DNA of 64,000 bases from Candidatus Micrarchaeum acidiphilum ARMAN-2 (GCA_009387755.1 GG697240.1:1-64000); one strand, 5' to 3'; shown: positions 7,043 through 15,914, counted from the stretch's first letter. Notes: a model not told the origin generated them from the sequence alone. Numbers and translations: made by a program.

Positions 7043-7423
7043 GTGATTGATATGGAAAGGATTGAAATGTGCCCAACACTCGAAGTGCTCCACTTATTGG
7101 GGAGAAAGTGGGCCGTTCCAGTGCTTGACGAAATATATTTTTCAGAGAAATACGCAAGATTCAACGATATGGCGAGCTCTCTGCACCCAATAACTCCGAG
7201 AGAGCTGAACCTTATGCTATTAAAGCTGGTTGATTCCGGCATTGTAGAAAAGGTTGATCTTCGCGGGAAAACCGCCTACACCCTGACAAAAAGAGGCGTA
7301 CTAGTGCACGATCTAATAAAAGCCATAAAACGTCAGGGCAACAAGTTAGGAAATGAAGGGTACGACTGCGTGAACACGAGGTGCAGTCAGTGCGCGCAGT
7401 TCAAAGTCTGCCTTAACGAATAG
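7043..7423 (+). CDS. HxlR-family winged-helix transcriptional regulator with a Cys-rich C-terminal tail
   Basis: 'CPTLEVLHLLGRKWAVPVLDEI' is the HxlR signature. C-terminal CVNTRCSQCAQFKVC. Confidence 0.7.
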   Translation: MIDMERIEMCPTLEVLHLLGRKWAVPVLDEIYFSEKYARFNDMASSLHPITPRELNLMLLKLVDSGIVEKVDLRGKTAYTLTKRGVLVHDLIKAIKRQGNKLGNEGYDCVNTRCSQCAQFKVCLNE

Positions 7424-7448: not shown

Positions 7449-8270
7449 TTATGCACGATTCTTAATTATATGTTCAATCCCAAAAGCGGTAACCGACATA
7501 GTTGCGAGCTCAACCGCGTTTTTGAGCGCTGACTCTGGGCCTGCTCCCGCTGCGGTTTGGGCCATAAATGCCCCTCCGAGTATGTCTCCGGAACCGCTTT
7601 TTTCCACCTGCTTTACTCTTGGTGCCTGCGCATGGAATGCAGTGCCTTTGCCAGAGTACACTGCCCCGTACCTGCCGAGCTTGTAGACAAACGCCTTGCT
7701 TTCTAGCAGTGGCTTGTCAATAAGCCTAAATTCGTTCATGTCAAAGAAAAGCACGTCGGCAACTGCCATTGCGGCAGATATTTCTGCGTGCCTGCTCACC
7801 AGGTACTCTTTTACAGTGTCAATGCCTATCACAGCGCCTTTCACCGTGGACCTGATGTAGGACGCCACATCGCCTTGCTTTTTTGGGTCCGTAGTTGCTA
7901 TGTAGTAATATTTACACTTCAGATAATGCTCAGGAATCATCCGGATCGAAAATCTTTCGCGCACACCCGGAAAAATCTGGATGTCCCGCTTATAGCCGTC
8001 CTTGGCGTATTTGCACACGCACAAGAAGCTGCTTCCCGGTGAAGTTTGAACGCCTTCTGTGTCTGCGCCAAGGAGTGCAAGTTTGCCCATGTCATAATCG
8101 CTACCTACTATTGAGAGCAGTCCTACCCTGTCCGAGAACCTCGAGGCACCAGCTGCAGCATAATATGCAGATCCGCCCTGCATTTTCATGTTGATATCCG
8201 GTGCATGCAGTTCGTCATAGCCCAGGTCTCCGAATATCACAAGTTCTGGCGCTTTTTTAACTTCGTCCAT
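7449..8270 (-). CDS. PfkB/ribokinase-family sugar or metabolite kinase
   Basis: C-terminal 'KSGSGDILGGAF' matches PfkB signature 2. N-terminal GG dipeptide region. Last gene of an overlapping four-gene operon. Confidence 0.7.
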   Translation of the reverse strand: MDEVKKAPELVIFGDLGYDELHAPDINMKMQGGSAYYAAAGASRFSDRVGLLSIVGSDYDMGKLALLGADTEGVQTSPGSSFLCVCKYAKDGYKRDIQIFPGVRERFSIRMIPEHYLKCKYYYIATTDPKKQGDVASYIRSTVKGAVIGIDTVKEYLVSRHAEISAAMAVADVLFFDMNEFRLIDKPLLESKAFVYKLGRYGAVYSGKGTAFHAQAPRVKQVEKSGSGDILGGAFMAQTAAGAGPESALKNAVELATMSVTAFGIEHIIKNRA

Positions 8271-8296
8271 AGGTTCCGCCTTTCAGGTCATGCGGT

Positions 8297-8830
8297 TCAT
8301 TCGTCAAACTTTAAGGTTTTAAAGCTTTTCAAATCCATGCCGTGCATGGCGTAGACCTTTTCCCAGCTTATATTCCCAAGCTCCCTTCCAGCTATTCCTA
8401 TCTCAGATATGGCCGACCGCACCTCTCTTTCGGACTTTGCCTCGACTTCAGCTACCGGCTTAAGCTTCGGCCATTCGTTTATGGTTATCTCTGCATTTTT
8501 GTAGATGTAAGTATATCTGACGTTTTCCTGATACAGCCCGTCGCCCAGTGCTTTCTGGAATATCTTTACGGCGGTGTCAAAGTCTTCAACAGCGGTTTCC
8601 AGCTCTTCGGTATTGGCGAGGCCGCTGCCGGTCCTGTACTTGTAGGTGACTGTGGCGGTTTTTCCGTCGGTCCTCACGCGTATGAATCTGTCCTCGTTTT
8701 CGGCCTTCTTTAAAGCGAAGACCCACCTTTTTTGCAGTGTCTTGCCAGCGAATTTAGCGCCGTTTTTTTCCAACTTTGCAATCAGGCCGTCCTTGTCTAT
8801 GTCGATTATCTTAGTTTCAATTTCGATCAT
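8297..8830 (-). CDS. CYTH-domain protein (triphosphate tunnel metalloenzyme; CyaB / thiamine-triphosphatase-like)
   Basis: N-terminal 'MIEIETKI' (ExExK motif) with alternating acidic and basic beta-strands. Overlaps the upstream gene by 4 nt. Confidence 0.65.
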   Translation of the reverse strand: MIEIETKIIDIDKDGLIAKLEKNGAKFAGKTLQKRWVFALKKAENEDRFIRVRTDGKTATVTYKYRTGSGLANTEELETAVEDFDTAVKIFQKALGDGLYQENVRYTYIYKNAEITINEWPKLKPVAEVEAKSEREVRSAISEIGIAGRELGNISWEKVYAMHGMDLKSFKTLKFDE

Positions 8831-9870
8831 TCAATCACTGCAGCAAGATTTTCGTATAGTATCTTTCCTCCGCTTAAAAGGCTTTTATATATTTGCTCGT
8901 GGCTTACTGCATCATTTTTTAGGTCTATGAGGTTGTCGGTCCTGGCCCCGCAGGGCTGCAGTATGCCTGTGGGTGAGAGCCTGGCATAATATCTGCAGCC
9001 CTCTAGGCATGCGCTTCGGGCTTTGCAGTTAACTACGGGGCAGTTGTTTGTCAGCGAATCCTTCAGGTCGATTATTGCGTTGCCTATTATGAAAATCTTG
9101 CCGTAGTAAGGCTGTATGTATGAATATGCAGAAGATGCCCGGGCGTCAAGCCTTTTTTCGAATTCCTTAAGCAACTGGTCAAAATGCTCCTGGTTCTGCC
9201 CGCTCTGGTCAATTATATGGAAAAATTTTATTCTGATGCCGAGGTTGTCTGAAAGCGCTATGTAATCGTCCAATTCCGCAAACGTTTCGTCTCTGATAAG
9301 CACATTTACACTTGTTTTGAGCCCGGAGCCTATTGCGCTTATTACGCCTTTCATTACAGCTTCTTGCGCGTCTATTCCAGTTATGCGCTTGAATTCGGTC
9401 CTGTCAAGTGAGTGCATCGACACATTTACCTCATTCAAGCCGGCATCCTTTAGGCGTGAGGCAAGGTTAGGATTCCCGCCAGAAAGCCGTGTTCCGTTCG
9501 TCGTAAGTTTGATATTTTTTATGTACCCTATTTTGCGCATTCTTGAAATAAGGTCTAAAAGTTCAGTTTCAAACAGCGTGGGCTCGCCATCGCCTGCAAT
9601 GTGAACGTTTATGTCCACCGAAGTAGCCGAATGCAGCTTTTCTACAATTGCAATTATTTCATTGTTCGATATTGCATTGCCGCTCCCTCTGTAGCTGTTG
9701 TCATCGTGGCATGCCACGCCAAGCTTCTTGTCGAAAATGCAGTTTTCATTGCATATACGTTTGCTTACGACTACTCCTTGCGGCACTGTTTTGTCTATTC
9801 TGAGATTCAATGATTTTGTCCTACCCAATTTTTTTTCTATTATTTCTATTGCCTTTTCCTCTGGGGTCAT
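8827..9870 (-). CDS. MoaA-like radical-SAM-fold protein with a non-canonical cluster motif
   Basis: MoaA-like core ('IAGDGEPTLF', 'KLTTNGTRL', 'AGLNEVNVSMHSLD') and a C-terminal Cys cluster (CPVVNCKARSACLEGC). The usual CxxxCxxC is 'CNENCIFD...AC' here. Start taken at MTPEEK. Confidence 0.6.
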   Translation of the reverse strand: MTPEEKAIEIIEKKLGRTKSLNLRIDKTVPQGVVVSKRICNENCIFDKKLGVACHDDNSYRGSGNAISNNEIIAIVEKLHSATSVDINVHIAGDGEPTLFETELLDLISRMRKIGYIKNIKLTTNGTRLSGGNPNLASRLKDAGLNEVNVSMHSLDRTEFKRITGIDAQEAVMKGVISAIGSGLKTSVNVLIRDETFAELDDYIALSDNLGIRIKFFHIIDQSGQNQEHFDQLLKEFEKRLDARASSAYSYIQPYYGKIFIIGNAIIDLKDSLTNNCPVVNCKARSACLEGCRYYARLSPTGILQPCGARTDNLIDLKNDAVSHEQIYKSLLSGGKILYENLAAVIE

Positions 9871-9880
9871 TGGAACACCA

Positions 9881-10537
9881 TTAGAGTCTTTCGCGCCTCT
9901 TGATGGCCCGTATTTTGCCAAGCGCAATCTTTGAGATTATGCAATCAACAGTCTCTTCAGGAGTGAGATTCGTGTTGTCTATCTCAATTACCTGTGCCTT
10001 GCCTCTTTCCCTTAGCTCCGCGGCGTACTTATAGAATTCCGAATCAATAAATGCCATTATCTTCGAGTCCCAGTCCAAACTGCTGTTTTTCACAGCTTCT
10101 CTTCGTGCAATCCTTCTAACCCGCTCTTCTTTGCCAACATGAAGGAACACCACAATGTCCGGATGCACTAGAGATCTTTCGGCAGAAGCAACAATGTCAT
10201 TTATTACAGATTTGTTGGCATCGCCATCGTACAGGGCATCGTAGGCAAAGTGATACGCCTTTGTGGAGTAAATGGATCTAACGAGTATTGTATCGATACC
10301 CTTCCTTTCGTTTTCAGCGGCCTCGTTGGAGGATAACTGATTAGTTCCTAGGAAGTATATCAGCCTGGCTAAAATTAGATCGCCAGCCTGGCCATTTAGA
10401 AAGTCCCGGAGGTCCGGCAGGAAGTCAACCCTCTTGGATTGCTCTATGACCTTAGATCCTGGCATTCTTTCAGAGAGCATTGCAGATATGGTAGATTTGC
10501 CGGAACCGTCACACCCTTCTATCGCTAAGATGACCAT
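9881..10537 (-). CDS. Thymidylate-kinase-like P-loop (d)NMP kinase
   Basis: 'ILAIEGCDGSGKST' is a Tmk-type P-loop. Start at MVILAI. First gene of the overlapping operon. AT-rich promoter region upstream. Confidence 0.6.
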   Translation of the reverse strand: MVILAIEGCDGSGKSTISAMLSERMPGSKVIEQSKRVDFLPDLRDFLNGQAGDLILARLIYFLGTNQLSSNEAAENERKGIDTILVRSIYSTKAYHFAYDALYDGDANKSVINDIVASAERSLVHPDIVVFLHVGKEERVRRIARREAVKNSSLDWDSKIMAFIDSEFYKYAAELRERGKAQVIEIDNTNLTPEETVDCIISKIALGKIRAIKRRERL

Positions 10538-10829
10538 GCGGATACACCTGCTAAGAGTTGCCACTCACTCCCATTTATAGTATAGCTGTTTTTCACGTTT
10601 GGTTATAATTTAAATATAATACTGCGCGGCGGTGCAATATCGATTGGGATGGAAACGCGAAAAATGCTGAAAAAAGTAAGTATGCAGGTATTTTGGCGTT
10701 AGACGATAGTATAGCTTAGCGACGTCAGAATTGATAGCTCGGCAACTAATTTATTTTTATATATATAAATCTTTTGCTATGTAGAAAGGTATAAATATAT
10801 GATAAAATAATATATTTACTGGTGTAAAT

Positions 10830-11312
10830 ATGACCAAACAAAAAACCAATTCGGATGGCATAACAAGAAGGATCTTCACGAAGGAAGTCGTAAAGTTGCG
10901 GGAGAGTTATAACGGCAAGGTAAGCGAGGAAGAGATGAAGAGCATAGGTGCAATACTGGAAACGGTAGATGCGACGTTTATTGGAACAAGCCGCTACAGC
11001 AAACCAGAAAATGGCTATGATCTCATAGCAAGCAGCATATACGCGGCGGCAGTTCAGGCAAAAATGAATGGCCATGACAACCTCTGGAAGGATTTGGCAT
11101 CCGTAGAGAATTCTGACTCGCTAATAAACAAGTTCAGCAGGTTTGTTAAATCAGATGCCGCCATTGTGGAGCAGAGAAAGAAGAAGTTTGATAAATTACA
11201 GTATCTCAGGGAAGTTGAAAACACACCGGGAGGGCTCGCAAGCATTCTTTCAAGCGAAAAAGGCAGGGCGGATCTGCTCAAGCAGCTCAGGAGGATAGAG
11301 AAGGAATCCTAA
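10830..11312 (+). CDS. Hypothetical protein
   Basis: 160-aa ORF immediately downstream of an AT-rich divergent promoter. No recognisable domain. Confidence 0.4.
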   Translation: MTKQKTNSDGITRRIFTKEVVKLRESYNGKVSEEEMKSIGAILETVDATFIGTSRYSKPENGYDLIASSIYAAAVQAKMNGHDNLWKDLASVENSDSLINKFSRFVKSDAAIVEQRKKKFDKLQYLREVENTPGGLASILSSEKGRADLLKQLRRIEKES

Positions 11313-11384: not shown

Positions 11385-12053
11385 TCAGATAGTGGCGCGT
11401 GGTCTTTTGCGCCTGCGGCCCATCTCTTTCAGGTAAAGCCTGAAGAGGTCCATTCTTCTGCTTGCGTTTCTGAGCAAAAAGTCAGTCATGCCCATTGAGT
11501 AAATGCTGCCCCTATATATGTTCTTCGTTACGAATCTCATTCCGAAGCCGGTGGCGCGCTTCACTGCCCCGGGTGTAACGGCGTTGGTAATCCTTTCGGT
11601 AAAAAATACACCGCTTCTTGCGAAGTCGTAAACCGCATCATAGAACGATTCGTCAAGCATGGCAACCGCGTCGGTATTTCTTATGTCGGGGTGCGTTACG
11701 GTTTCTACGAAATACATCATGTAGCGCCCCCTTTTCTCCAGCGAGTATACGTTGTTTGCGGTTATCTCCTGATCTAGCATAAGGCCCTTTTTGGCTTTCC
11801 TGAACATTTTTTCCTTTAGTGCAACAAAATGCCAGTAACCAAGTATGTTCAAATTTCCATCGACAAGATACCTCGAAGAGTAAGGGCTCTTCTTGAAAAC
11901 CGGTACCCAGTTCTCGCGCGTCCCTTCCTCCTCCTTGGTTATGCCCTTCATGTCTGCGTAATCCAGATAGATAAGCCTGTCAAGCAGGGATTCGTAGCTG
12001 TATTTTCCGCTTAGAAATGGGTGATATGGAATTACGGCAAGTGTTTCGAACAT
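11385..12053 (-). CDS. Hypothetical protein
   Basis: 222-aa ORF with host-like composition. No recognisable domain. Confidence 0.4.
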   Translation of the reverse strand: MFETLAVIPYHPFLSGKYSYESLLDRLIYLDYADMKGITKEEEGTRENWVPVFKKSPYSSRYLVDGNLNILGYWHFVALKEKMFRKAKKGLMLDQEITANNVYSLEKRGRYMMYFVETVTHPDIRNTDAVAMLDESFYDAVYDFARSGVFFTERITNAVTPGAVKRATGFGMRFVTKNIYRGSIYSMGMTDFLLRNASRRMDLFRLYLKEMGRRRKRPRATI

Positions 12054-12330: not shown

Positions 12331-14070
12331 TTGATAATCAAATCAGTGCGTTCTATGGAAGATATATATCATAGTGTATTGGAAATCTCCGGAGATAAAC
12401 TTAAGATAGAGGACATTGTCCGCGTAGGCAATTCTATCCCTGGAACAGTTATGGTGAGACTGTCCAAAAATGCAGAAGACTCCATGCGCAAATCTAGGAA
12501 GTTTGTGGATGAAGCTGTTGAAAACAAATTAACAATATATGGCATTAACACTGGTTTCGGTTCACAGGCTGAGAATGTGATATCGAGCGAAGATGTTGCT
12601 CTCCTGCAGCGCTACCTGATAGTAAGCCATTCTGCAGGGGTAGGAGACCCTTTCAGTCAGGAACTGATAAGAGCTTCAATGCTGATAAGGGCAAATACGC
12701 TGGCAAAGGGCAACTCAGGAATCAGGATAGAAGTAGTGCAAACGCTCATAGATATGATAAACAAAGGCGTGGCCCCGTTTGTGCCTAGGAAGGGATCGCT
12801 AGGCGCCAGTGGAGATCTGGCCCCGTTATCGCATATTGCGCTAGTAATGACACGCGACCCGAGGGATACACACATAAAGATTGAGGATGAGCTAGCCAAG
12901 AAAGCAGCTTCTGGGATGCATTTCGATGATGACGAACGCAGAAAATCTCTAAAGGAGTCTGGAGAGGCATATCTTTGGTCGTCTGAAAGAAGCTCATGGG
13001 AGCGGATGACCGGAATTGAAGCAATGGCAAAGGCCGGAATCAAAAGGATAACCTTGAGCGCAAAGGAAGGTCTTGCATTGAACAATGGAAGCACGGTTTC
13101 GGCCGCTATGGCGGCATACGCCATCCATTACGGAGAAAACTTGCAGCGCAGCGCAGACATAATAGCCGCGCTAACCACGGAATCTGTTAAGGGTTTCGAG
13201 TCCGCATTCTATGAAGAGCTTCATGCGACACGTCCGCACCCGGGGCAGGCTGAATCTGCCAAAAGGATACGCAATTACTTGAAATCTAGTGGAATGGTTA
13301 CGCACATAGAGCAGATACAAAACTCGCGAAATGTATATCAGGACTTTAAAAAGGTTCAGGACTCGTATTCTATAAGGTGTATTCCCCAGGTTCATGGCCC
13401 GGTGATAGACACGCTGAGGTCCTCGAGAGAAATGATTGATAAGGAGATCAATTCTGCAACCGATAATCCATTGATAATGCCGGACAACAGCTACTTTAAC
13501 AAGAGTTTCAGCGGAGGCAATTTCCACGGCCAGTACATAAGCCTCTACATGGATAATCTCGGCACAGCACTCGGCATACTCGGCAACATAGCCGAGAGAA
13601 GGATTTTCAAGCTCGTGACAAGGAATCTGAGCGAAGGGCTGCCAGGGTTTCTGATATCTCCAGCACCGGATAAGGCCGGGCTCATGAATGGTGCGATGAT
13701 ACTTCAGTATACTGCAGCACACCTGGTATCGGAGAACAAGGTATTCTCGCATCCAGCGTCAGCTGATAGCATACCCTCGTGCGAAGACAAAGAAGATTTC
13801 GTAAGCATGGCGCCCATAGCAGCCAGCAAGGCACTGGCGATACTGGAAAACTCTGAGAATATACTTGCAATAGAGCTTTGGTGCGATATAGTCGCCCTCA
13901 GGATCAGGATGAAAGAGGGCCTTACACCAAGCGATAACGCCAAAAAGGTCCTTGGTCTCTTCAAGGACAAGGTTGCGGAGTTTGAGGAGGACAGAGTAGT
14001 CTATGACGAGGTGAGGGAGCTGAAGGCGTTCATACACGATGGCGGGCTGCAGTCCATGACCCGGCAGTAA
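12331..14070 (+). CDS. hutH: Aromatic amino acid ammonia-lyase (HAL/PAL family; MIO-forming)
   Basis: 'GSLGASGDLAPLSHIAL' contains the Ala-Ser-Gly triad that forms the MIO cofactor. Full-length collinear similarity to histidine ammonia-lyase. Confidence 0.8.
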   Translation: MIIKSVRSMEDIYHSVLEISGDKLKIEDIVRVGNSIPGTVMVRLSKNAEDSMRKSRKFVDEAVENKLTIYGINTGFGSQAENVISSEDVALLQRYLIVSHSAGVGDPFSQELIRASMLIRANTLAKGNSGIRIEVVQTLIDMINKGVAPFVPRKGSLGASGDLAPLSHIALVMTRDPRDTHIKIEDELAKKAASGMHFDDDERRKSLKESGEAYLWSSERSSWERMTGIEAMAKAGIKRITLSAKEGLALNNGSTVSAAMAAYAIHYGENLQRSADIIAALTTESVKGFESAFYEELHATRPHPGQAESAKRIRNYLKSSGMVTHIEQIQNSRNVYQDFKKVQDSYSIRCIPQVHGPVIDTLRSSREMIDKEINSATDNPLIMPDNSYFNKSFSGGNFHGQYISLYMDNLGTALGILGNIAERRIFKLVTRNLSEGLPGFLISPAPDKAGLMNGAMILQYTAAHLVSENKVFSHPASADSIPSCEDKEDFVSMAPIAASKALAILENSENILAIELWCDIVALRIRMKEGLTPSDNAKKVLGLFKDKVAEFEEDRVVYDEVRELKAFIHDGGLQSMTRQ

Positions 14071-15350: not shown

Positions 15351-15914
15351 CTATGATTTGGCGTCGCCATCGTACTTCAGCCTGTAGAGTTCTGCCTCTT
15401 TAAACGCTTCTTCTACCGCCTCTTCGGGAGTCTTTGCCGGATAAACTTGCCTGCGTTTCCTTCCGTCAAAGAATTTGCCTGCCATGTCGTCCGCCCATCC
15501 GCCAAAGCCCTGGAGTGCTATCAGTGGTATGTCCGCTTGGTACGCAACGGCCAGCTCGTTGAGCGTCCCGGAGCCGCCGCTCACTCCTATGACCGCGTCG
15601 CACGCCAGGACAAGCACGAATTCCCTGCCCCCACCTCTCTCCATGCCGCAGGGCACTATAACATCAACGCCCTCCTTCTGGTAGATATCCTTTCTCTTGC
15701 CATATGTCACCCCCACGGTAAGACCACCTCCTTTCTTGGCTCCCCTACATGCTGCAGTGGAGAGCGAGTCATAATCCTTTTCGGCACCAAAAACCAGAAT
15801 CCCGCCCTTTTTGGCTATTAGCTCGCCCATCCTCTCGGCGGCACGCTCCGCCTCCTTGGCATACTTCAGATCTGCAGCAGAACCCATCACACCTATCTGC
15901 AATCTCCTTGGCAT
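15351..15914 (-). CDS. TIGR00725/LOG-like (SLOG) Rossmann-fold protein
   Basis: 'IGVMGSA...GGILVFGAEKD...VIGVSGGSGTLNELA' is typical of LOG/DprA-like SLOG proteins. Confidence 0.55.
   Translation of the reverse strand: MPRRLQIGVMGSAADLKYAKEAERAAERMGELIAKKGGILVFGAEKDYDSLSTAACRGAKKGGGLTVGVTYGKRKDIYQKEGVDVIVPCGMERGGGREFVLVLACDAVIGVSGGSGTLNELAVAYQADIPLIALQGFGGWADDMAGKFFDGRKRRQVYPAKTPEEAVEEAFKEAELYRLKYDGDAKS

Follow-up and report, generated by a model that had tools for sequence, protein, structure and literature searches.

Four closely packed genes of Candidatus Micrarchaeum acidiphilum ARMAN-2, a tiny acid-mine archaeon of the DPANN group with a genome of ~1 Mb, encode a thymidylate-kinase-like kinase, a MoaA-fold radical-SAM enzyme, a CYTH enzyme and a PfkB-family kinase. 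The radical-SAM enzyme belongs to a rare family separate from MoaA, and its gene stays linked to kinase and CYTH genes in many relatives. We judge the odds to be evenly balanced that the operon is a dedicated nucleotide-analogue pathway built on viperin-like logic and possibly aimed at transcription or invading genetic elements; its chemistry, substrate and role are those we infer below from folds, motifs and gene linkage.

A compact four-gene operon

In the window analysed (a 64-kb stretch of the ARMAN-2 genome), four minus-strand ORFs in the order A-B-C-D occupy positions 7449–10537: Gene A, a thymidylate-kinase-like P-loop nucleotide kinase (9881–10537, 218 aa, EET89903.1); Gene B, a MoaA-fold, predicted twin-cluster radical-SAM enzyme (8827–9870, 347 aa, EET89902.1); Gene C, a CYTH/triphosphate-tunnel metalloenzyme (8297–8830, 177 aa, EET89901.1); and Gene D, a PfkB-family (ribokinase-like) kinase (7449–8270, 273 aa, EET89900.1). 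A first-pass annotation of this DNA had described a minus-strand operon whose genes overlap by 4 nt or lie less than 30 nt apart, and the ORFs were found where it placed them, with gaps of 10, −4 and 26 nt; its domain calls were likewise correct at family level by HMM assignment (Thymidylate_kin, Radical_SAM, CYTH and PfkB). Gene A starts at the ATG at 10537, as in public gene calls, and an alternative GTG at 10564 would give 227 aa. Ten nucleotides, with a GGTG read from the sequence inside them, separate the A stop from the B ATG (9870); a mechanical TTG start of B at 9927 would instead mean a 47-nt A/B overlap. B and C overlap by 4 nt (ATGA), by which C is predicted to be translationally coupled to B, and 26 nt lie between the C stop and the D ATG (8270).

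An AT-rich divergent intergenic spacer of 266 bp (10565–10830) separates the operon from a 160-aa gene on the opposite strand. Its GC content is 0.32 (10550–10849) versus about 0.45–0.52 in genes and flanks, and TATA-like runs can be read on the operon (minus) strand at 10769–10750, 10620–10603 and 10585–10573; the spacer is a candidate archaeal promoter region, plausibly shared by the operon genes and serving the opposite-strand gene. The base composition of the locus is ordinary, the neighbours of the operon within 10 kb are metabolic genes, and no defence or mobile genes were found within 10 kb.

Public annotations name the products thymidylate kinase, PfkB sugar kinase, putative CyaB and, for Gene B in the JGI record, cyclic pyranopterin phosphate synthase. 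The first-pass annotation had named well-assigned, unrelated housekeeping roles as evidence that would count against a dedicated pathway, and none of the four proteins reached the equivalog cutoff of a housekeeping enzyme. When the operon was searched against PADLOC-DB v2, kinase A alone matched catalogued models (PDC-M51B, 5.7e-17; VakA, 2.7e-11), and B, C and D gave zero matches to the catalogued anti-phage defence systems. Close packing of four genes is by itself ordinary; the operon carries a more-than-chance signal because linkage recurs in relatives despite shuffled gene order, and because some of the genes are fused.

Gene B belongs to a rare family related to MoaA

Gene B matched Pfam Radical_SAM (PF04055, 58 bits versus a cutoff of 29.5), carries an AGDGEPT SAM motif that is invariant across its family, and was modelled as a MoaA-like partial TIM barrel. 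MoaA (PDB 1TV7/2FB3) is by far its closest fold and closest sequence family. The best NCBIfam match was moaA_archaeal (TIGR02668), at 109.2 bits versus a cutoff of 325.25; NF001199 (107.4 versus 231) and TIGR02666 (86 versus 284) also fell short. In a neighbour-joining tree, all archaeal and bacterial-type members (78/78) formed one clade apart from 38 MoaAs. The family is rare (38 clusters at E ≤ 1e-30 among 1.84e9 representatives) and patchy (11/185,579 species representatives). By these sequence comparisons, Gene B represents a rare family distinct from MoaA that spans archaea and bacterial-type lineages.

Identification of Gene B as MoaA itself (GTP 3′,8-cyclase) was rejected on the missed equivalog cutoffs, the separate clade and the lack of molybdenum cofactor (Moco) neighbours. 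No Moco genes lie within 10 kb on either side, and homologues of MoaC/B, MoaE, MobA and MoeA are absent from the 64-kb window, including the nearby moaC that the first-pass annotation had named as a mark of a genuine MoaA; true MoaAs from the same scan are located in Moco clusters. Mob_synth_C (PF06463) is on record for true MoaAs but for no B-family member. MoaA has a terminal Gly-Gly, whereas ARMAN-2 B lacks a GG tail and has a conserved SGGK near, but not at, its C terminus. The family does have a Cys-rich region, but with five invariant C-terminal cysteines, compared with the three of the MoaA auxiliary cluster, and with an 11-residue insert that carries two extra invariant cysteines; its signature is NxCPNxxCxxRxxCxEGC...QPCGxRxDN...SGGK.

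The cluster motif differs as well. Where MoaA has Cx3Cx2C, the sequence in ARMAN-2 B and in every close Micrarchaeota member is CNENCxF[DVS]x6C, that is Cx3Cx9C; the usual third-cysteine position is Asp, Val or Ser and the canonical triad is lost, whereas more distant family members retain CNLxCxWCH. We regard Cx3Cx9C as a predicted cluster-binding variant. We know of no precedent for this spacing, and the loop was modelled at a pLDDT of only 68–76, both of which count against our preferred reading.

With respect to substrate, sequence alignment places R24 and R297 of Gene B, both invariant, at the positions of MoaA R17 and R268 (PDB 2FB2), whereas the position of R266 is Tyr, Ser, His or Glu in the B family. 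The first-pass annotation had pointed out that MoaA homologues act on GTP, but GTP as substrate of Gene B is an assumption: one of the three arginines named for 2FB2 is not kept, and the partner kinases (thymidylate/CMP-kinase-like and uridine-kinase-like) hint at pyrimidines.

The kinases and the CYTH enzyme

Gene A matched Thymidylate_kin (PF02223, 48 bits versus a cutoff of 27, 1.2e-12) and dNK (1.8e-6). All cluster kinases share the P-loop GxDGxGK[ST], R87 and the lid arginines R142 and R146, but ARMAN-2 kinase A has VRS where eight other cluster kinases have DR[YFS], so that the Asp is lost. Assignment as dTMP kinase (Tmk) was rejected on this altered DR motif, despite the kept P-loop and lid arginines, and on the missed equivalog score (TIGR00041, 38.6 bits, below the cutoff of 83.25).

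Gene C is assigned, by conserved residues and profile comparison, to the CYTH/triphosphate-tunnel metalloenzymes. Its ExExK (EIETK), R51/R53 (RxR), K64, E76/E78 (ExE) and E128/E130 (ExE) are conserved, and it shares catalytic residues with SaTTM, archaeal CYTH proteins and CyaB, but falls below the cyaB equivalog cutoff (TIGR00318, 44.9 bits, 1e-11, versus 57.95). ARMAN-2 Gene C by itself did not reach the Pfam CYTH threshold; a profile of its orthologues matched, in the PDB, SaTTM (7ns8, 7e-20), Pyrococcus CYTH proteins and a class IV adenylate cyclase (4e-6). We found no description of a CYTH gene translationally coupled to a radical-SAM gene.

Gene D matched PfkB (PF00294, 44.6 bits versus a cutoff of 25.8, 1.6e-11) and has the C-terminal GxGD catalytic motif in the form SGSGD; it lay far below the cutoff of every NCBIfam equivalog, and its closest solved relative (3kd6) is a PfkB protein with no assigned function. 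A specific orthologue (E 3e-52) occurs in the same cluster of lineage L025, fused to a SAM methyltransferase.

Linkage is conserved in relatives with changing partners

Relatives of Gene B almost always adjoin a P-loop nucleoside or nucleotide kinase, in varying gene order. A TMK-like or uridine-kinase-like kinase adjoins the B homologue in 13/14 evaluable archaeal lineages, in three gene orders, and a TMK-type kinase does so in three bacterial-type loci. In some loci the TMK-like partner is swapped for a non-homologous, uridine-kinase-like kinase; two radical-SAM–TMK fusion proteins were found, and a pyruvate-kinase-barrel–TMK fusion lies beside one B homologue. CYTH genes adjoin B homologues in about 12 lineages, with catalytic residues intact. 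PfkB is in the cluster in only 2 of ~19 lineages (ARMAN-2 and L025); elsewhere its place is taken by a TFS-like factor, by an extra CYTH-like protein and a methyltransferase, or by HD or NUDIX hydrolases. Gene D is a lineage-variable fourth member of the operon. Of the quartet posited in the first-pass annotation, then, the linked radical-SAM, kinase and CYTH genes recur in many relatives, but the four genes are not conserved as a set. The Micrarchaeota loci lie in metabolic or housekeeping surroundings, and the L036 cluster adjoins a ribosomal protein operon.

Further partners resemble transcript-cleavage factors. A divergent TFS-like protein follows the cluster in five Micrarchaeota lineages; these proteins have 114 aa, match TFS_arch over their full length with an invariant R..DE hairpin, and a database search returned one relative only besides the query. 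In eight bacterial-type lineages a GreA-C-domain paralogue follows the B homologue, matching the C-terminal two-thirds of GreA with no recognisable GreA N-terminal domain. TFS-like and GreA-like factors are non-homologous but functionally analogous. Both partners are divergent paralogues of known factors (archaeal TFS/TFS4; bacterial GreA/GreB/Gfh1/Rnk), far below equivalog cutoffs, and neither matched PADLOC-DB v2 models. A TFS-like gene or any other cleavage-factor paralogue is absent from the whole 64-kb ARMAN-2 window.

Genes near bacterial-type members encode CHAT, Cas_NE0113, NACHT, integrase, type I restriction-modification specificity (S) subunit, AAA_15/21 and transposase proteins, with defence-type genes (CHAT, CARF, restriction-modification) at only three loci (L045, L060 and L061). 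CHAT lies directly upstream of, and co-directional with, the B homologue in three loci, a Cas_NE0113/CARF protein lies upstream in L045, and in L062 a DksA/TraR protein is encoded two genes away from the B homologue. This reach of the B family into bacterial defence islands, together with the cleavage-factor linkage, was not visible from the ARMAN-2 sequence read in the first pass.

A possible nucleotide-analogue pathway and its alternatives

In the pathway we propose, D would phosphorylate a nucleoside or ribose moiety, A would convert a monophosphate to a diphosphate, and a housekeeping NDP kinase would complete the triphosphate. B would then cleave SAM at the putative Cx3Cx9C cluster and abstract a hydrogen from the ribose of the bound NTP, yielding a modified NTP, and C may act on the product triphosphate, which it would either split off, as tripolyphosphate (PPPi) or as pyrophosphate (PPi), or cyclise. 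The kinase fusions and linkage, the TFS-/GreA-like linkage and the defence genes at three loci together point to a nucleotide analogue aimed at transcription or at invading genetic elements as the most likely product. The core idea of the first-pass annotation, a self-contained nucleotide or triphosphate module matching no named pathway, is sound, and its interpretation as a whole partly supported. Against our reading stand the ARMAN-2 locus itself, which has an ordinary base composition, no TFS-like gene in the window and no defence or mobile genes within 10 kb, the linkage of PfkB in only two lineages, the sighting of defence contexts at only three bacterial-type loci and the lost Asp of kinase A; a chain-terminator NTP is also hard to reconcile, as end product, with a CYTH enzyme that strips triphosphate.

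An alternative interpretation is that the operon makes a cofactor or metabolite for the cell's own use, with B and C acting like MoaA and MoaC: the radical-SAM enzyme would rearrange a purine NTP, a cyclase-like CYTH would form a cyclic phosphate with release of PPi, and the outcome would be either a cofactor precursor of pterin, deazapurine or cPMP type or a modified nucleoside, with the kinases, methyltransferase and HD/NUDIX proteins serving tailoring or salvage. The closeness of B to MoaA in fold and family, its conserved R17/R268 equivalents and auxiliary-cluster cysteines, the coupling of B and C, the surroundings of the Micrarchaeota loci (L036 among them) and the tailoring-like look of the methyltransferase, HD and NUDIX partners all agree with this, but we consider it unlikely: the 64-kb window yielded no further Moco or pterin genes, a route from GTP to a cofactor has no need of nucleoside or nucleotide kinases, the B family is rare and patchy, its bacterial members sit in defence islands with GreA-like paralogues, and TFS/Gre linkage has no role in a cofactor pathway. 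That same linkage, present in both domains of life, could instead reflect a signal, whereby B produces a nucleotide, modified or cyclic and possibly made with CYTH as the cyclase, that is read by the TFS-/GreA-like factor at the RNA-polymerase secondary channel (compare ppGpp with DksA), or by CHAT/CARF in bacteria, so that transcription is reprogrammed or halted under stress or infection. Class IV adenylate cyclases do belong to CYTH, and the CHAT, Cas_NE0113/CARF and DksA/TraR neighbours noted above would suit such a role. However, the nearest match of the CYTH orthologues is a triphosphatase, SaTTM, and not a cyclase; the DE hairpin with which active cleavage factors carry out catalysis is retained in the TFS-like proteins, which fits RNA rescue better than ligand sensing; the ARMAN-2 window has no TFS-/Gre-like factor; and we know of no radical-SAM enzyme that makes a signalling nucleotide. 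We regard a second messenger as very unlikely.

Finally, the cluster might be a chance assembly of housekeeping salvage genes, in which the true thymidylate kinase of the genome (A) and a ribokinase or nucleoside kinase (D) happen to lie beside an inorganic triphosphatase of general function (C) and an unrelated radical-SAM enzyme or degenerate MoaA (B). The public names read this way, DPANN archaea depend on salvage and PfkB is seldom linked, but the missed equivalog cutoffs of all four proteins, the survival of B–kinase–CYTH linkage through changes of gene order, non-homologous kinase replacement and fusion, and the separation of the B family from MoaA and from Moco context, in which the true MoaAs were found, make this highly improbable.

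Returning to the nucleotide-analogue reading, what is most striking is that one enzyme family repeatedly has a cleavage-factor partner, TFS-like in archaea and GreA-like in bacteria, and this pairing yields a directly testable hypothesis: production of a nucleotide analogue coupled to protection or control of the producer's own RNA polymerase. More speculatively, and we hold this broader proposal to be doubtful, the family may define a novel type of archaeal and bacterial system in which a MoaA-derived radical-SAM enzyme and a kinase make a modified nucleotide acting through RNA polymerase. Fast-evolving secondary-channel cleavage-factor paralogues (TFS-like, GreA-like) would be dedicated to it, either excising the analogue from the host's stalled transcripts or using it as a co-ligand for transcription shutdown, and ARMAN-2 would have a variant in which CYTH and PfkB process the nucleotide further. 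Excision, if it occurs, would confer a self-immunity that invaders' polymerases lack if they are unable to use such factors. Were the nucleotide-analogue pathway borne out, it would join a short list of specialised small-molecule pathways assigned in DPANN archaea, and would bring new radical-SAM chemistry on nucleotides together with a Cx3Cx9C cluster-binding variant.

Comparison with known systems

After MoaA, the next-best structural and sequence relatives of Gene B are two twitch radical-SAM enzymes, AbmM (albomycin) and BlsE (blasticidin S). The substrate of AbmM is a cytidine nucleotide and that of BlsE is cytosylglucuronic acid; in each case a pyrimidine nucleoside or nucleotide is modified on its sugar. 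Their identity to Gene B is just 15–18%, however, and their natural-product clusters are unrelated, with no kinase, CYTH or cleavage-factor linkage.

Viperin ranks below MoaA, BlsE and AbmM as a structural match and, to our knowledge, lacks the auxiliary-cluster cysteines that Gene B has. Gene B was rejected as a viperin on its score with NF038283 (viperin_w_prok; 23.1 bits versus a cutoff of 180) and the absence of a PADLOC pVip match; the pVip models are themselves non-specific, giving 56–82 bits for MoaA controls versus 0–56 bits for B-family members. The likeness is one of design and not of membership: as in viperin/pVip with a CMPK2- or VakA-type kinase, a radical-SAM enzyme related to MoaA, with an NTP as its putative substrate, is linked or fused to a TMK-family kinase that would supply that substrate. 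Linkage of viperins to kinases, and fusion of viperin to a 'triphosphatase or cyclase domain', have been described (bioRxiv 10.1101/2023.09.13.557418). The resemblance extends to the match of kinase A to PADLOC VakA and to the bacterial relatives of B in defence islands. If our reading is true, the B family, with its own partner set of kinases, CYTH and transcript-cleavage-factor paralogues, would show that the MoaA scaffold was recruited to make nucleotide analogues a second time, independently of viperin.

Operon layout and surroundings

The four minus-strand ORFs at 7449-10564 encode a thymidylate-kinase-like P-loop kinase (A), a radical-SAM enzyme (B), a CYTH enzyme (C) and a PfkB-family kinase (D), and their products are identical to GenBank EET89900-EET89903 (D to A, respectively) of Candidatus Micrarchaeum acidiphilum ARMAN-2, a DPANN archaeon; many acid-mine metagenome contigs carry the same locus unaltered. 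The most plausible start of A is the ATG at 10537, as in the public call (218 aa), with AGGTG 8 nt upstream. Ten nucleotides separate the stop of A from the ATG of B (9870), the stop of B and the start of C overlap as ATGA, and 26 nt lie between C and D, a layout read directly from the sequence that confirms the four-gene operon proposed in the first-pass annotation. The 266-bp spacer upstream of the operon has a GC content of 0.32, compared with about 0.45-0.52 in the genes, and contains several TATA-like runs. It also lies upstream of a divergent orphan gene and is a plausible candidate for the operon promoter. Neither an Rfam family nor a tRNA was detected in the window.

That orphan (160 aa; window 10830-11312, plus strand), immediately upstream of the operon and weighed as a possible transcription-factor-like partner, is alone in its 90%-identity cluster and is predicted to be all-helical at low confidence (single-sequence AF2, pLDDT 64, unreliable). 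Like a second upstream orphan of 222 aa (11385-12053, minus strand), it has no match in Pfam, NCBIfam or PADLOC and forms a single-member cluster. The operon is otherwise flanked by an aromatic/histidine ammonia-lyase (12331-14070, plus strand), a SLOG/LDcluster4 (LOG-like nucleotide-binding) protein (15351-15914, minus strand) and a convergent HxlR-type regulator (7043-7423, plus strand), and its neighbours are metabolic genes.

A radical-SAM family distinct from MoaA

B has the shape of MoaA, yet it is not MoaA. MoaA models score best on it, with 109 bits where the cutoff is 325. The cluster motif CNENCxF[D/V/S]x6C reads as Cx3Cx9C: the position of the third MoaA cysteine is occupied by another residue and an invariant cysteine lies seven residues further on, so a [4Fe-4S] cluster at this site is putative, the modelled loop having a pLDDT of 68-76. 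The C-terminal region carries five invariant cysteines and an 11-residue insert. By sequence alignment, B retains only two of the three arginines altered in the MoaA 2FB2 triple mutant, and it has no precomputed Mob_synth_C domain, which true MoaAs do show.

Several identities for B were weighed. A genuine molybdenum-cofactor (Moco) MoaA is ruled out by the sub-cutoff score and by the gene content of the 64-kb window, in which no MoaC, MoaB, MoaE, MobA or MoeA homologue was detected; the first-pass annotation had named a genuine MoaA with moaC nearby as an example of what would speak against its pathway. True bacterial MoaAs from the same genome scan (n = 3) lie inside Moco clusters and have Gly-Gly ends. 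Public annotation of the operon uses generic names or 'cyclic pyranopterin phosphate synthase', and the latter is mistaken. Membership of the viperins is likewise ruled out: matches of the B family to PADLOC pVip models are uninformative because control MoaAs match the same models more strongly. B is predicted to work in the manner of MoaA and viperin-type nucleotide modifiers, yet it falls outside both groups. The idea that B substitutes for ribonucleotide reductase, with a C3' radical leading to loss of the 2'-OH, is disfavoured by the class II reductase adjoining one archaeal cluster (L038), and a role as a viral auxiliary gene is without support, no relatives having been found among IMG/VR viral contigs.

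A word-indexed search with B recovered 28 clusters, nearly all micrarchaeotal, at identities of 36-100%; below these came a gap and then true MoaAs at 26-28%. Among 1.84 billion representatives, exhaustive profile searching returned only 38 B-family clusters at E<=1e-30, and the GTDB species representatives with a detected member numbered only 11. A metagenome scan revealed a second, bacterial-type branch at 33-35% identity with a canonical CNLxCxWCH motif. Both branches share the signature NxCPNxxCxxRxxCxEGC...QPCGxRxDN...SGGK and together are monophyletic (78/78 sequences) with respect to 38 MoaAs in a neighbour-joining tree. We found no description of this family or of its linkages and partners in the literature, although an earlier one may exist elsewhere. 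At L026 (7956-9017), one of the relatives' loci (designated L0xx), the radical-SAM gene is broken into three ORFs in different frames, as a pseudogene or through assembly error; the Marsarchaeota label of its bin is doubtful given 52% identity to Micrarchaeota proteins.

The partner enzymes

HMM assignment placed A-D in the superfamilies originally claimed, none with an assigned equivalog. A, a P-loop kinase of the thymidylate-kinase/dNK type (Pfam, 1.2e-12), falls well below the dTMP-kinase equivalog cutoff (38.6 versus 83.25 bits) and matches the PADLOC models PDC-M51B and VakA; judged from the pVip model descriptions, VakA appears to be a kinase linked to viperins. Residues 86-88 of A (window 9881-10537, minus strand) read VRS, compared with DR[Y/F/S] in 8/8 other aligned cluster kinases, possibly reflecting altered catalysis or specificity in the ARMAN-2 lineage. 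C retains the ExExK, RxR, K, ExE and ExE residues of CYTH enzymes, and its orthologue profile hits SaTTM, a triphosphatase of Sulfolobus, at 7e-20; for class IV adenylate cyclases the value is about 4e-6. D has the GxGD motif of PfkB kinases, and neither family models nor solved relatives assign it a substrate.

Conserved linkage of the enzyme to kinases

Neighbours in all fetched loci were classified by phmmer, with key ones checked against Pfam and NCBIfam, and identical or near-identical loci were merged by eye into about 19 archaeal-type lineages. A P-loop kinase adjoins the B homologue in 13/14 archaeal-type lineages with enough flanking sequence. The thymidylate-kinase (TMK)-like protein precedes the enzyme in ARMAN-2, L016, L026 and L039/41, follows the CYTH gene in L012, L014 and L038, and directly follows the enzyme in L025; in L011, L023, L024, L036 and L042 it is replaced by a non-homologous uridine-kinase-like protein (117 bits to udk models). 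Two further proteins from the exhaustive profile search, P0194 (540 aa) and P0199 (530 aa), fuse an N-terminal B-family radical-SAM domain to a C-terminal Thymidylate_kin domain and are Rosetta-stone links between enzyme and kinase. At L045, of the bacterial type, a pyruvate-kinase barrel is fused to a TMK-like kinase. A linkage that persists when the genes are reordered, when a non-homologous kinase takes over and when the two are fused is strong evidence that a kinase supplies the nucleotide on which the enzyme depends.

CYTH genes adjoin the enzyme in about 12 lineages and are absent from the uridine-kinase type, whereas PfkB occurs in the clusters of ARMAN-2 and L025 only, the latter encoding a clear D orthologue (E 3e-52) fused to a SAM methyltransferase that is also adjacent in L039/41. 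The neighbourhood check therefore bears out part of the first-pass reading: the conserved units are the enzyme-kinase pair and the trio with CYTH, not the quartet, while the idea of a nucleotide pathway stands.

Other recurrent partners include HD and NUDIX hydrolases. A conserved protein of 233-249 aa follows CYTH at L025:4469-5194, L039:2723-3472 and L041:6464-7165 and is itself followed by the SAM methyltransferase; it begins with an ExExR-like strand, and its CYTH nature is putative (hhalign probability of only 44% against the CYTH profile). Six lineages have a small protein of 87-111 aa beside the cluster (L011:2916-3188, L014:7665-7928, L023:6371-6634, L025:1910-2212, L039:4021-4356 on the minus strand, and L042); these proteins resemble, below threshold, the ligand-binding (RAM) domain of Lrp/AsnC and may be regulators that bind small molecules. 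Eight or more Micrarchaeota lineages encode a protein of ~405 aa divergently to the radical-SAM gene (minus strand at L020:1371-2588, L023:3116-4327, L024:6698-7912, L012:6678-7895 and L036:6709-7923; also L011, L016 and L018), often with a NUDIX hydrolase behind it. Its sole recognisable part is a C-terminal winged helix; the N-terminal ~330 residues have no match in Pfam, NCBIfam or PDB, and the ARMAN-2 window has no such protein. One archaeal and one bacterial-type locus also encode a ribonucleotide reductase within a few kb of the cluster (L038:8770-10465 and L044:5888-9337, both minus strand); the former has class II-type Pfam domains and the latter, read from the translated ORF, looks intein-containing.

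Association with transcript-cleavage factors and conflict genes

In five Micrarchaeota lineages the cluster is directly followed by a 114-aa two-zinc-ribbon TFS-like protein (L012:10196-10540, L014:10776-11120, L038:3658-4005, L026:9561-9905 and L016:4213-4575); the ARMAN-2 window has none. The match to archaeal TFS is full-length, at 30-40 bits compared with a cutoff of 64.75, and the R..DE acidic hairpin is invariant. Because a query of 5.8 billion database clusters found only one relative besides itself, this protein seems to be a paralogue that is specific to the cluster and evolves fast, not the canonical TFS. In eight bacterial-type lineages (L044, L045, L048, L050, L052, L056, L060 and L061) a Gre-like protein of 154-208 aa is encoded immediately or two genes downstream of the enzyme; its C-terminal two-thirds matches GreA at 66-72 bits in most and weakly in L045 and L061, and its non-canonical N-terminus bears the conserved motif SPGSGMGRPxDLP. 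TFS and GreA are non-homologous and do the same job in the secondary channel of RNA polymerase, and chance is a poor explanation for their having become linked independently to a single enzyme family.

Among the loci examined, conflict genes surround only three, all bacterial-type (L045, L060 and L061). CHAT proteases are encoded directly upstream in three loci (L047, L055 and L060), and neighbours of bacterial-type loci include Cas_NE0113/CARF (in L045), NACHT, an integrase, a type I restriction-modification specificity (S) subunit, AAA_15/21 ATPases and transposases. The gene that follows the Gre-like one in L060 (8728-9510) encodes a protein of 260 aa that resembles HNH_5 endonucleases weakly and below threshold (3e-4), a possible effector in the bacterial-type cassette.

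Proposed mechanism and parallels with viperin systems

From the operon, its folds and catalytic motifs, the distinct family and the linkages, we infer the following chemical steps. PfkB (elsewhere the uridine-kinase-like protein) and the TMK-like kinase would bring a nucleoside or NMP up towards the NTP, from which B would take a ribose hydrogen to yield a modified NTP; CYTH, translationally coupled to B, would then hydrolyse or cyclise the triphosphate. In other lineages, methyltransferase, HD and NUDIX partners would tailor or detoxify the product. The earlier assumption that GTP is the substrate did not hold up. The partner kinases hint at a pyrimidine substrate and the MoaA-like fold at a purine.

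The link to cleavage factors points to an encounter between the product and RNA polymerase. The product could be an analogue, removed from the host's own transcripts by its cleavage factor, or a ligand acting jointly with that factor. If CYTH removes the triphosphate, this would speak against the pathway ending in a chain-terminating NTP in Micrarchaeota.

The system is best described as a radical-SAM nucleotide modifier with its kinase, and the cleavage-factor link may make more of it. MoaA abstracts H3' and viperin H4', and the pairing of enzyme and kinase parallels in design that of viperin with CMPK2 or VakA kinases. The parallel extends to eukaryotic viperins reported to be fused to a 'triphosphatase or cyclase domain' (bioRxiv 10.1101/2023.09.13.557418).
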